From the IMG/VR virus record IMGVR_UViG_2675903606_000011: 4,489 nt of DNA; one strand, 5' to 3'. Position 1 is the first letter of the stretch; each line of letters begins with the position of its first letter. The translations under genes were made by a program, and so were the position numbers. This document shows, in pieces, positions 1 to 4,364 of this stretch. The notes under the pieces were generated by a model. That model searched no databases. It saw only the letters and a list, made by a program, of their open reading frames with translations, and was not told the origin of the DNA. Source of the DNA: a virus. Taxonomy: Duplodnaviria; Heunggongvirae; Uroviricota; Caudoviricetes.

Positions 1-182
1 GTGGCCCGCCAGGTATCTGCATCCAGCTCTTCACCGGTATACTCTGCATCCGTCAGATAAACCGCGATCGCAGGAAAATCCTCTTCGTCAAAAACAACGG
101 GGCGACCATCAAACAGCGTCGCCCCGTGTTCATGCTGCTCGAGTGCATCCAGCACTGCCGCACGGATATCAGTATGTTTCAT
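1..182 (-). CDS. U: Tail tube terminator protein, lambda gpU homolog (5' part only; runs off the window start)
   Basis: My reverse-complement translation from the ATG at 182-180 gives MKHTDIRAAVLDALEQHEHGATLFDGRPVVFDEEDFPAIAVYLTDAEYTGEELDADTWRA..., open to position 1. This closely matches the lambda gpU N-terminus as I recall it (MKHTELRAAVLDALEKHDTGATFFDGRPAVFDEADFPAVAVYLTGAEYTGEELDSDTWQA). The ATG overlaps the Z stop (ATGA, TGA at 181-179). Not in the ORF track because it is truncated at about 60 codons. Confidence 0.85.
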   Translation of the reverse strand, partial: MKHTDIRAAVLDALEQHEHGATLFDGRPVVFDEEDFPAIAVYLTDAEYTGEELDADTWRA

Positions 183-3020: not shown

Positions 3021-3623
3021 TCATGGCATGGCCATGAGCATTTTCACGTCCGCATCACCGTCTGCTGACGTCTGTGACACGCCACCCCGCACCGCTGCCG
3101 GTGAATGATTCGCCATGAAATGTTCAAACAGGGCGGTTGTGGATGCAGAGACCGGTTCTGCTTTATCCGGCGATGAGGACAGAATGTCGCGGGCAGCCTC
3201 CACCGTCATTCCGGGAAACGCCGCCAGTTTTTCAGCCTGCGCCTCAGCCCCTTTTGCCTCATCCAGAGCCATAATCTGATCACGGAGTGAGGGTCCGGCA
3301 TCCGCCAGTGGTGCAGCCGCAAGGATCGGGCGGGCTTTTTCCACCGTCATCTCCGGCATCGCCGCCAGCGTTGCCGCCAGTTGTTCACGACCGTTCGCTT
3401 CTTCACACGCCATAATGCGATCGGCTTCACTCTGCGTGGATGCCACCGGCTGCTGTGGTGCTGCCGCGGTCAGAATCGCCCGGGCCTGTTCAACGCTCAT
3501 GCCCTGTTGTCCTGCCAGCATCGTGGCAAGGTGTTCACGTCCTTTCGCTTCCTGACACGTCAGGATCCCCATCACTCGCTGGTTCTCCTGCGCGGCAGCT
3601 TCCGTTGCAGTTAATTGCGGCAT
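3021..3623 (-). CDS. Nu3: Nested in-frame scaffolding protein, lambda Nu3-like (C-terminal 200 aa of C, from internal ATG)
   Basis: Internal ATG at 3623-3621 (Met248 of C) is preceded by a perfect AGGAGG (3633-3628, 4-nt spacer), which itself encodes Gly-Gly of C. The product MPQLTATEAAAQENQRVMGILTCQEAKG... (200 aa) shares the C stop. In lambda, Nu3 is encoded in the same frame within the 3' part of C (about 200 codons), so size and position match. Independent expression is inferred from the SD, not demonstrated. Confidence 0.6.
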   Translation of the reverse strand: MPQLTATEAAAQENQRVMGILTCQEAKGREHLATMLAGQQGMSVEQARAILTAAAPQQPVASTQSEADRIMACEEANGREQLAATLAAMPEMTVEKARPILAAAPLADAGPSLRDQIMALDEAKGAEAQAEKLAAFPGMTVEAARDILSSSPDKAEPVSASTTALFEHFMANHSPAAVRGGVSQTSADGDADVKMLMAMP

Positions 3624-4364
3624 AGTGCCTCCTGTATCATGTGTGTTCAGCGCCGCATCAATCCGCTGCTGCATGTCCTGGCGAATCTCTTCCGGCAACG
3701 CTTCAAACTGATTGCCATCCACCTTGTGCGCCCCTGAGTAAATCAGCGTGATATCCACACCGGCCTGCGCCAGATGACCGGCATAGCTGACATGGCTCAT
3801 CATCACGCCAATGGAGCCGATACGGGATGTCTGGGTAACCAGCCGTCGGGAGCAGGCCGACGCCAGCAGCATGGCTGCAGAACAGGCCGTGTCATTGCAC
3901 AGTGCCCAGACCGGCTTCTGCTGACGGAGGCGGTAAATCATGTCAGCACAGTCAAACGCACCGGCGGCCTGCCCGCCCGGACTGTCAATGTCCAGCAGTA
4001 CACCCCGCACCTGGCTATCCGCCATTGCCTGCTGAAGACAGGCGACAATGCCGTCATAGCCTGTCATTCCGGAAAATGGCCGCATACCCCCCAGCCGGTG
4101 CACCAGCGTGCCTGTCACCGGCAGTACAGCAATACCGTTCACCACCTGGTAAACACGGGCCGGTCGTTTACCTCCGGCCATGTACTCGTCCGTTTCAGCC
4201 AGCATTCCGGGTGCATCAAGCTGTACCTGCTGTTGTGGTACCGAAAGACTTGCTGCCCCCATCTCGCGCCCGAGCGCGCAAAAGAAAACCCGCGCATAGG
4301 CGGGCTCCAGAAGCAGCGGTTCATTGAATGCTGCGGCAATAATGTGTGAAAGATTACGTCTCAC
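3021..4364 (-). CDS. C: Prohead protease / minor capsid protein, lambda gpC homolog (S49/ClpP-like), 447 aa, apparent GTG start
   Basis: ORF track 3021..4364(-). The N-terminal two thirds match lambda gpC from memory: AFNEPLLLEPAYARVFFCAL, VVNGIAVLPVTGTLV, MTGYDGI, GVLLDIDSPGG, AGAFDCADMI, KPVWAL, SRRLVTQTSRIGSIGVMM, ITLIYSGAHKVDGN. The first codon is GTG (plus 4362-4364 = cac); there is no in-frame ATG upstream of the conserved AFNEPL motif, and an in-frame TAG lies 12 codons upstream. GAGGAG sits 10 nt upstream. Stop TGA at 3023-3021. Confidence 0.9.
   Translation of the reverse strand: MRRNLSHIIAAAFNEPLLLEPAYARVFFCALGREMGAASLSVPQQQVQLDAPGMLAETDEYMAGGKRPARVYQVVNGIAVLPVTGTLVHRLGGMRPFSGMTGYDGIVACLQQAMADSQVRGVLLDIDSPGGQAAGAFDCADMIYRLRQQKPVWALCNDTACSAAMLLASACSRRLVTQTSRIGSIGVMMSHVSYAGHLAQAGVDITLIYSGAHKVDGNQFEALPEEIRQDMQQRIDAALNTHDTGGTMPQLTATEAAAQENQRVMGILTCQEAKGREHLATMLAGQQGMSVEQARAILTAAAPQQPVASTQSEADRIMACEEANGREQLAATLAAMPEMTVEKARPILAAAPLADAGPSLRDQIMALDEAKGAEAQAEKLAAFPGMTVEAARDILSSSPDKAEPVSASTTALFEHFMANHSPAAVRGGVSQTSADGDADVKMLMAMP
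3168..3578 (-). repeat. Three tandem copies of a roughly 40-50 aa motif in the C/Nu3 C-terminal domain (coding repeat)
   Basis: C residues 263-303 RVMGILTCQEAKGREHLATMLAGQQGMSVEQARAILTAAAP; 316-352 RIMACEEANGREQLAATLAAMPEMTVEKARPILAAAP; 363-399 QIMALDEAKGAEAQAEKLAAFPGMTVEAARDILSSSP. Consensus IMxxxEAxGxExxAxxLAxxPxMTVExARxILxxxP, period about 47-53 aa. Seen directly in the translation. Confidence 0.75.
3628..3633 (-). promoter_or_regulatory. Internal Shine-Dalgarno (AGGAGG) for the nested Nu3-like start
   Basis: Minus-strand ...ACA GGA GGC ACT ATG CCG... read directly from the sequence. This is the strongest SD in the window and lies inside the C reading frame. Confidence 0.6.

Follow-up and report, generated by a model that had tools for sequence, protein, structure and literature searches.

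The window analysed here, i.e., the whole stretch of 4,489 nucleotides (nt) from the IMG/VR virus record IMGVR_UViG_2675903606_000011 (Caudoviricetes), is a phage-21-type Escherichia coli prophage head operon. Its closest phages are PhiR12_2_star (99.1%) and phage 21 (GenBank M81255; 95.3%), and lambda gave no megablast match to it, its DNA being too diverged. In reverse complement, the window corresponds to the whole of contig CYAZ01000124.1 in the draft E. coli assembly GCA_001284505.1. All the genes of the window lie on the minus strand; they make up the head-to-tail part of a lambdoid late operon and each of them is confirmed by Pfam (Table 1). The gene considered in most of what follows is the homologue of lambda gene C and phage 21 gene 5 (C/gp5), which is located between the portal gene and the genes of the decoration protein (D) and of the major capsid protein (E). 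The protein of 447 amino acids (aa) that it encodes carries three related units of ~41-44 aa, called modules below.

The C-terminal part of C/gp5 is also covered by a nested, in-frame open reading frame (ORF), the homologue of phage 21 gene 6 (gp6) and functional equivalent of lambda Nu3. Its ATG start (3623-3621) precedes module 1 by 12 aa and falls, in the alignment, at the start annotated for phage 21 gene 6, itself nested in gene 5. This in-frame internal start, with the ribosome-binding site that precedes it, would give a separate scaffold protein. The original prediction, made from the letters of the window and its ORFs, had placed a repeat in the part common to C and a nested Nu3-like protein, and all three modules do lie inside 3021-3623.

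Table 1. Coordinates of the features of the window. Residues are those of C/gp5 unless gp6 is indicated.
Feature	Residues	Position	Strand	Remarks
C/gp5 homologue		3021-4364	minus	S49 (SppA/ClpP-like) head-maturation protease fused to scaffold domain; 447 aa; GTG start
Nested in-frame scaffold ORF		3021-3623	minus	200 aa; phage 21 gp6 homologue, lambda Nu3 functional equivalent; contains all three modules
GGAGG ribosome-binding site		3628-3632	minus	4 nt upstream of the nested start; annotated as putative ribosome-binding site of gene 6 in M81255
Module 1 (Tri1 box)	260-303	3456-3587	minus	ENQRVMGILTCQEAKGREHLATMLAGQQGMSVEQARAILTAAAP
Module 2 (Tri box)	312-352	3309-3431	minus	SEADRIMACEEANGREQLAATLAAMPEMTVEKARPILAAAP
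Module 3 (Tri3 box)	359-399	3168-3290	minus	SLRDQIMALDEAKGAEAQAEKLAAFPGMTVEAARDILSSSP; divergent allele in the window
Module 1, predicted helices	gp6 6-21, 30-37, 44-53			block pLDDT ~79-82
Module 2, predicted helices	gp6 66-71, 80-87, 94-103			
Module 3, predicted helices	gp6 113-118, 127-134, 141-150			
Scaffold C-terminal tail	400-447	3024-3167	minus	predicted helix ASTTALFEHFMANH (3105-3146); terminal DVKMLMAMP
Deletion junction in C/gp5	between D236 and A237	3654-3659	minus	missing segment = L002 2210-2371
End of portal gene		overlaps C start	minus	
D/shp		2637-2984	minus	Pfam HDPD
E/major capsid		1551-2579	minus	Pfam Phage_cap_E
FI		1116-1499	minus	Pfam Packaging_FI
FII		770-1123	minus	Pfam Phage_attach
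Z		179-754	minus	Pfam Minor_tail_Z
Start of U		1-182	minus	Pfam Phage_tail_U

The three related copies had been proposed to span 3168-3578, which corresponds to aa 263-399 and is essentially exact. Smith-Waterman comparisons of the copies with each other give scores of 94, 71 and 100, for means of 22-24 after shuffling (z = 14.8, 11.7 and 15.5). Since the region is rich in Ala, Glu and Gln, and since no tandem repeat was detected in the DNA, the likeness could have been thought to be a chance effect of composition between Ala/Glu-rich helical segments, without any true duplication. This explanation, whose probability is practically nil, is refuted by the statistics of the shuffles and by profile matches. 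None of 2000 composition-preserving shuffles reaches the scores observed between copies, and alignments of the copies with the protease domain or with the tail stay at background (scores of 15-37, versus 71-100 among copies). Furthermore, every copy taken alone matches the same positions of single-copy PHROG scaffold families (E values of 1e-6 to 1e-13). These include phrog_8399, annotated as 'head scaffolding protein' and matched by all three copies, and phrog_8940, annotated as 'capsid assembly protein'; each of these two families matches the nested ORF in three stretches.

Over an ungapped core of 32 aa, the copies share 53-62% identity at the protein level and 53-68% at the DNA level, and identity at third codon positions falls to 25-44%; the DNA alignment of the copies has a mean column identity of 58%. 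Tandem Repeats Finder found nothing at the DNA level in 3168-3578. Low third-position identity and the lack of any repeat found by this program both indicate that the repeat is old and belongs to the protein level, in agreement with the old duplication that the divergence of the DNA copies had suggested. The module begins its conserved pattern with an E-A-K-G-R-E turn that hardly varies; L-A-x-x-L-A comes next, then a loop (P-G-M-T) and a helix (A-x-x-I-L). The motif initially described for all copies, P-x-M-T-V-E-x-A-R-x-I-L, is exact in copies 2 and 3; copy 1 departs from it and reads Q-G-M-S-V-E-Q-A-R-A-I-L. Judged from their sequences, the three units are thus real, tandem and anciently duplicated copies of one mini-domain of ~41 aa, maintained at the protein level. 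The helix of the tail, ASTTALFEHFMANH, was considered as a degenerate fourth repeat and rejected, its scores against the copies (15-20) being at or below those of shuffled sequences (22-24).

The ratio of non-synonymous to synonymous substitution rates (dN/dS) was calculated by the Nei-Gojobori method in four pairwise comparisons among the window, phage 21, a prophage of strain EDL933 and strain RMDEC364. It ranges from 0.09 to 0.41 in each module (0.09-0.20 for module 2 versus relatives), and all three copies are therefore under purifying selection. Module 3 of the window is, unlike modules 1 and 2, a divergent allele in comparison with phage 21 (dS 0.79, dN/dS 0.17 and 11.5 non-synonymous differences, for dS of 0.11-0.13 in modules 1-2). 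The repeat region may therefore be a mosaic or contain a recombination junction. The Escherichia phage PhiR12_2_star has this allele of module 3 too.

It should be stressed that the three-copy repeat is already known, since it is annotated in the GenBank record of phage 21. In M81255, gene 6 bears three repeat_region features with the names 'Tri1 box', 'Tri box' and 'Tri3 box', for which the record gives 'function unknown; putative'. These features (2471-2574, 2611-2721 and 2752-2865 of the record) align with modules 1-3, the window having three tandem units of ~35-44 aa at the annotated positions, and the 'Tri box' underlies the match of module 2 to phage 21 in tblastn searches. The implication of the original prediction that the three-copy state is unusual or unrecorded is thus not supported. 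In the library searched, no paper was found that mentions the Tri boxes or the structure of Nu3. The annotation of M81255 presumably comes from Smith & Feiss 1993 (Gene).

More generally, the window closely resembles the head-tail preconnector region of phage 21 (gp5/gp6): the gene pair, the nested start, its ribosome-binding site and the positions of the modules are all the same, and both follow the order portal-gp5/6-shp(D)-gp7(E)-FI-FII-Z-U. Besides the allele of module 3, the window differs from phage 21 in that its protease domain, upstream of gene 6, is 54 aa shorter. Outside this gap, its gp5 is 94% identical to that of phage 21 and 100% identical to that of PhiR12_2_star.

The comparison with lambda is instructive as well. 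The C/Nu3 pair of lambda has the same layout, with an S49 protease, a linker, a module and a conserved tail, and with an in-frame nested scaffold gene of ~200 aa. As the original prediction had it, lambda carries fewer copies: unlike the window, its C/Nu3 has exactly one module when read directly. This module (ENSRIMGILNCEEAHGREEQARVLAETPGMTVKTARRILAAAP), which is followed by the tail, is 56-59% identical to each window copy over the core, and the window copies are as distant from each other as from the lambda copy. The tail of the window protein is conserved with the ALDRLM...DLLNTPV tail of lambda in an alignment with Nu3. The start of lambda Nu3 lies within the S49 domain, ~110 aa upstream of the module, and Nu3 also comprises a linker of ~60 aa that is rich in Ser and Thr. 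The two scaffolds are almost equal in length (200 aa for the window gp6 versus 201 aa for lambda Nu3) and begin at non-homologous starts (3021-3623 versus L003 1133-1738).

Searching 50,697 phage records with module 2 (tblastn) led to matches in 139 of them. One detectable module was found in lambda, 434, HK630, N15, phi80, HK225 and mEp237, and in phages of Vibrio, Aeromonas, Xylella and Stenotrophomonas, the matches lying in genes annotated as head maturation protease or scaffold. A profile built from 27 modules was also searched against 1.84 billion representatives of 50% identity clusters, 1678 of which match at E<=1e-3. The matches typically lie either in short ORFs or in the C-terminal part of proteins of 430-530 aa, a size typical of fusions between an S49 protease and a scaffold (e.g., lambda C). 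Among the best 139 new representatives, 129 have one full module, seven have two and two have three; the remaining one, a repetitive protein of 3486 aa, has none. One copy is therefore the norm across the wider family, and forms with two or four copies are rare. Some proteins with two copies (P0115, P0116, P0145 and P0171) are very distant from those of E. coli phages and, therefore, duplication occurred more than once. The overall spectrum is thus one copy in lambda, N15 and phi80-type phages, three in phage-21-type ones, rarely two or four, distant lineages having duplicated the module independently.

In head modules of the phage 21 type, the presence of three copies is a near-fixed norm, i.e., a lineage feature. 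The 603-nt scaffold region is found at >=80% coverage in 1866 of the 5426 complete E. coli genomes (about a third), including EDL933, Nissle 1917 and ATCC 25922, and forms a single ungapped match in 58 of 60 evenly sampled E. coli records. The original prediction would have been refuted by homologues universally carrying the same three copies, as a mere family feature, and by this criterion the repeat is a feature of the lineage.

The relationships between copies inform on their history. Every single-copy module and every first copy of the multi-copy proteins has window copy 1 as its best match, whereas second copies match copy 2 and third copies match copy 2 or copy 3. Copy 1 is thus the ancestral unit, and module 1 is orthologous to the only module present in lambda Nu3 and in distant single-copy relatives. 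Copies 2 and 3 have in common a shorter first helix, and E. coli and Salmonella relatives have orthologous copies at corresponding positions; as read from these alignments, copies 2 and 3 were added downstream before the divergence of these relatives.

Several natural variants of the repeat were noticed. Two-copy forms (P0016, P0021 and P0022) arose by deletion between or within copies, and the first module of P0022 is a hybrid of copy 1 and copy 2, which is consistent with unequal recombination between repeats. The E. coli variants include forms deleted of module 2. A four-copy form (P0024) has near-identical copies 2-4, and a chromosomal allele (L008, 98-1546) has lost 19 aa from module 2 and yet bears the annotation of an intact S49 peptidase. 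A candidate for a stand-alone scaffold gene, P0106, was rejected because its frame is open upstream to the end of the contig, so that it is nested or truncated; P0104, which sits on a contig of 555 nt, is uninformative in this respect.

AlphaFold2 was run on the whole gp6 with 20 homologues and on a single module with an alignment of 27 sequences. The model of gp6 has a mean predicted local distance difference test score (pLDDT) of 69 and a predicted template modelling score (pTM) of 0.28, the blocks of the modules reaching 75-82 and the linkers 62-65. The single-module model (pLDDT 85.8, pTM 0.58) has three helices at positions 2-9, 18-25 and 32-41. The difference between blocks and linkers, together with the low pTM of the whole, indicates units without fixed mutual arrangement: each copy is predicted to be an independent mini-bundle of three helices borne by flexible linkers, the arrangement of the copies relative to each other being undefined. 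Helical units folding independently had been anticipated, and the models agree with this. In the tail, helices are predicted with low pLDDT for gp6 residues 160-173 and 191-196; the tail would be a candidate for the coat-binding end of the scaffold.

The size of the module (~40 aa) and the predicted up-down-up topology of its three helices are also those of small bundles such as domain III of RuvA, UBA/CUE domains and the domains of protein A. These bundles all serve in protein-protein interaction, and those of protein A likewise occur in tandem. Foldseek comparison of the whole gp6 model with the PDB gave nothing at E<=0.001; tandem Myb repeats appear at E ~5, which reflects only the layout of tandem three-helix units. 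A 10-residue exact match ('AKGREALA') in PDB 9hqv, a Toxoplasma mitoribosome chain, was discarded as due to chance. Pfam and NCBIfam contain no family for the module, yielding sub-threshold noise only (Disulph_isomer, DUF7178 and HHH). Copy 3 of phage 21 gp5 reaches 13.0 bits with the helix-hairpin-helix family PF00633, below its cut-off of 24, and the window protein has no match to it at E<=1. Another role, in which the modules would be helix-hairpin-helix-like units contacting DNA or RNA during packaging, is very improbable.

Scaffolding proteins of the P22 gp8 type have a C-terminal helix-turn-helix domain that binds the coat. No similarity in sequence or fold to this C-terminal domain was found in gp6. 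Going by the predicted anatomy of gp6, the likeness with gp8 lies in the head-assembly job and in a small helical unit within a largely flexible, elongated protein.

The best overall explanation of these data, with a probability of about 0.6, is that the modules are duplicated, independently folding scaffold mini-domains that act as interaction units in the procapsid and are translated in both the protease and the scaffold. Lambda-type scaffolds that go with an S49 protease have this domain of ~41 aa as their core. In the window it would be translated twice, once in the C-terminal part of gp5 (the lambda C homologue) and once as most of the nested gp6 (Nu3 equivalent). The bundles, joined by short Pro/Ala/Gln linkers, would form beads-on-a-string and would be protein-protein interaction units in the procapsid, contacting each other, the inner face of the coat and/or the portal. 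The sharing of modules between the two proteins would carry the protease into the shell. Three copies would give a longer and multivalent scaffold in comparison with the single copy of lambda. The two extra modules may also stand in for the N-terminal extension of lambda Nu3, keeping the length of the scaffold constant, a length compensation that may hold and is drawn from two phages.

In lambda, Nu3-Nu3, Nu3-C, Nu3-B and Nu3-E interactions were reported (PMC3224144), none of which was mapped to the module. The module has neither a Pfam family nor a solved structure, so that the coat, the portal and the module itself are putative partners. Several points weigh against this explanation. No experiment or structure assigns a partner to the module, and sequence searches of the PDB gave no relative of it. 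The conserved C-terminal tail could instead be the coat-binding element, the modules then being spacers or self-association units. The equal lengths of the scaffolds of two phages (200 versus 201 aa) could be a coincidence. Lastly, the protease half of gp5 is truncated in the window, and this prophage may not assemble heads at all.

Alternatively, the modules could be passive length or 'ruler' elements without any specific binding surface, only the scaffold length of ~200 aa being of importance; their duplication would have been a cheap gain of length after the internal start had moved downstream. The lengths fit this proposal, since lambda Nu3 has one module and a long N-terminal extension whereas gp6 has three modules and no extension. 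The predicted flexibility of the inter-module linkers and the annotation as intact genes of relatives with two copies, four copies or a partly deleted module fit it as well. However, sequences as diverse as those of E. coli, Vibrio, Xylella and alphaproteobacterial-like members show next to no variation in the E-A-K-G-R-E turn and in the hydrophobic pattern, and this applies to all three copies. Each copy has a dN/dS of 0.1-0.4, and conservation of a surface motif would not be expected of a mere spacer. The three-copy length is, moreover, nearly fixed in E. coli genomes (58/60 sampled). Strong conservation of the EAKGRE turn argues for a specific surface rather than for a pure spacer, and a purely passive role appears unlikely in comparison with that of interaction units.

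A broader proposal, which can be put forward only tentatively, is that the EAKGRE module is a widespread uncurated domain marking S49-linked scaffolds. Its copy number would be an evolvable setting of valency or length that compensates for the position of the nested start, so that the scaffold stays at ~200 aa.

The triple repeat of the window is what is normally found in a prophage head module that is very common in E. coli, and it is, as such, of little import. The module itself is the conserved core of the lambda-type scaffold, without curated family, solved structure or assigned partner, and its natural versions with one, two, three and four copies would provide a clean test of the effect of scaffold valency or length on T=7 head assembly.

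More specific to the window than the repeat, and unusual, is the deletion in the protease domain. C/gp5 has undergone an in-frame deletion of 162 nt (54 aa), with the loss of the segment AARRMFAEKV...DAISVMA. Phage 21, PhiR12_2_star and every listed complete E. coli genome carry this segment, which is bounded in full-length relatives by an 8-base-pair direct repeat (TGCGGCGC), as would be expected for a slippage deletion. An S49 domain is still recognized in the window protein by Peptidase_S49 (PF01343; E=5.3e-22, 78.9 bits for a cut-off of 24.9) and by TIGR00706 SppA_dom (E=4e-25). Due to the deletion, the match is incomplete: positions 3-95 of the 154 of the Peptidase_S49 profile and 2-153 of the 208 of SppA_dom are matched, versus 3-151 and 2-205 in phage 21 gp5. 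The deletion thus takes out positions ~96-151 and ~154-205 of these two profiles, that is, the last third of the S49 domain. It ends 11 codons before the start of the scaffold and therefore leaves gp6 untouched. The start of lambda Nu3 falls in exactly the segment that is deleted in the window.

The junction of the deletion was not found in contigs representing one genome per species or in IMG/VR and, as a single piece, it is absent from the matches listed for the 5426 complete E. coli genomes. Nevertheless, the same allele is present in a second draft E. coli assembly, GCA_021449985.1 (4 mismatches over 4206 nt), so that the deletion is a real but rare variant; an exact look-up identified the window gp5 as the protein WP_053879778.1 / CTT82931.1. 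Going by the profile matches and the position of the junction, the deletion probably leaves gp5 without protease activity, in a prophage that would be defective but has kept an intact scaffold gene. Another E. coli protein, P0126 (382 aa), has an in-frame deletion joining the C-terminal region of S49 (…AAVFEGQ) to the middle of module 2 (AAMPEMTVEKARP…), and deletions around the protease-scaffold junction therefore recur in prophages.

Some other observations concern the neighbouring genes. An overlap of 11 nt (4354-4364) between the end of the portal gene and the beginning of C, with its GTG start, is as in phage 21 genes 4 and 5 and suggests translational coupling. Terminator-like sites are found 10 times in the window, for 3.9 +/- 2.1 expected. 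Two of them are strong hairpins with T-runs on the coding (minus) strand, one in the D-E gap (2608-2629; TCAGGCCACCGCGGTGGCCTGA + CTGATTTTTT) and one in the E-FI gap (1523-1543; GCGGGGGCGAAATGCCCCCGT + GTCTTTTTTC). Inside the late operon, these might attenuate transcription or stabilise the mRNA. The ORF list has the FI homologue begin with a GTG at 1547 (143 aa; 1116-1547); an ATG at 1499 (127 aa), just 3' of the 1523-1543 hairpin, agrees both with the match to Pfam Packaging_FI and with the public gene call.
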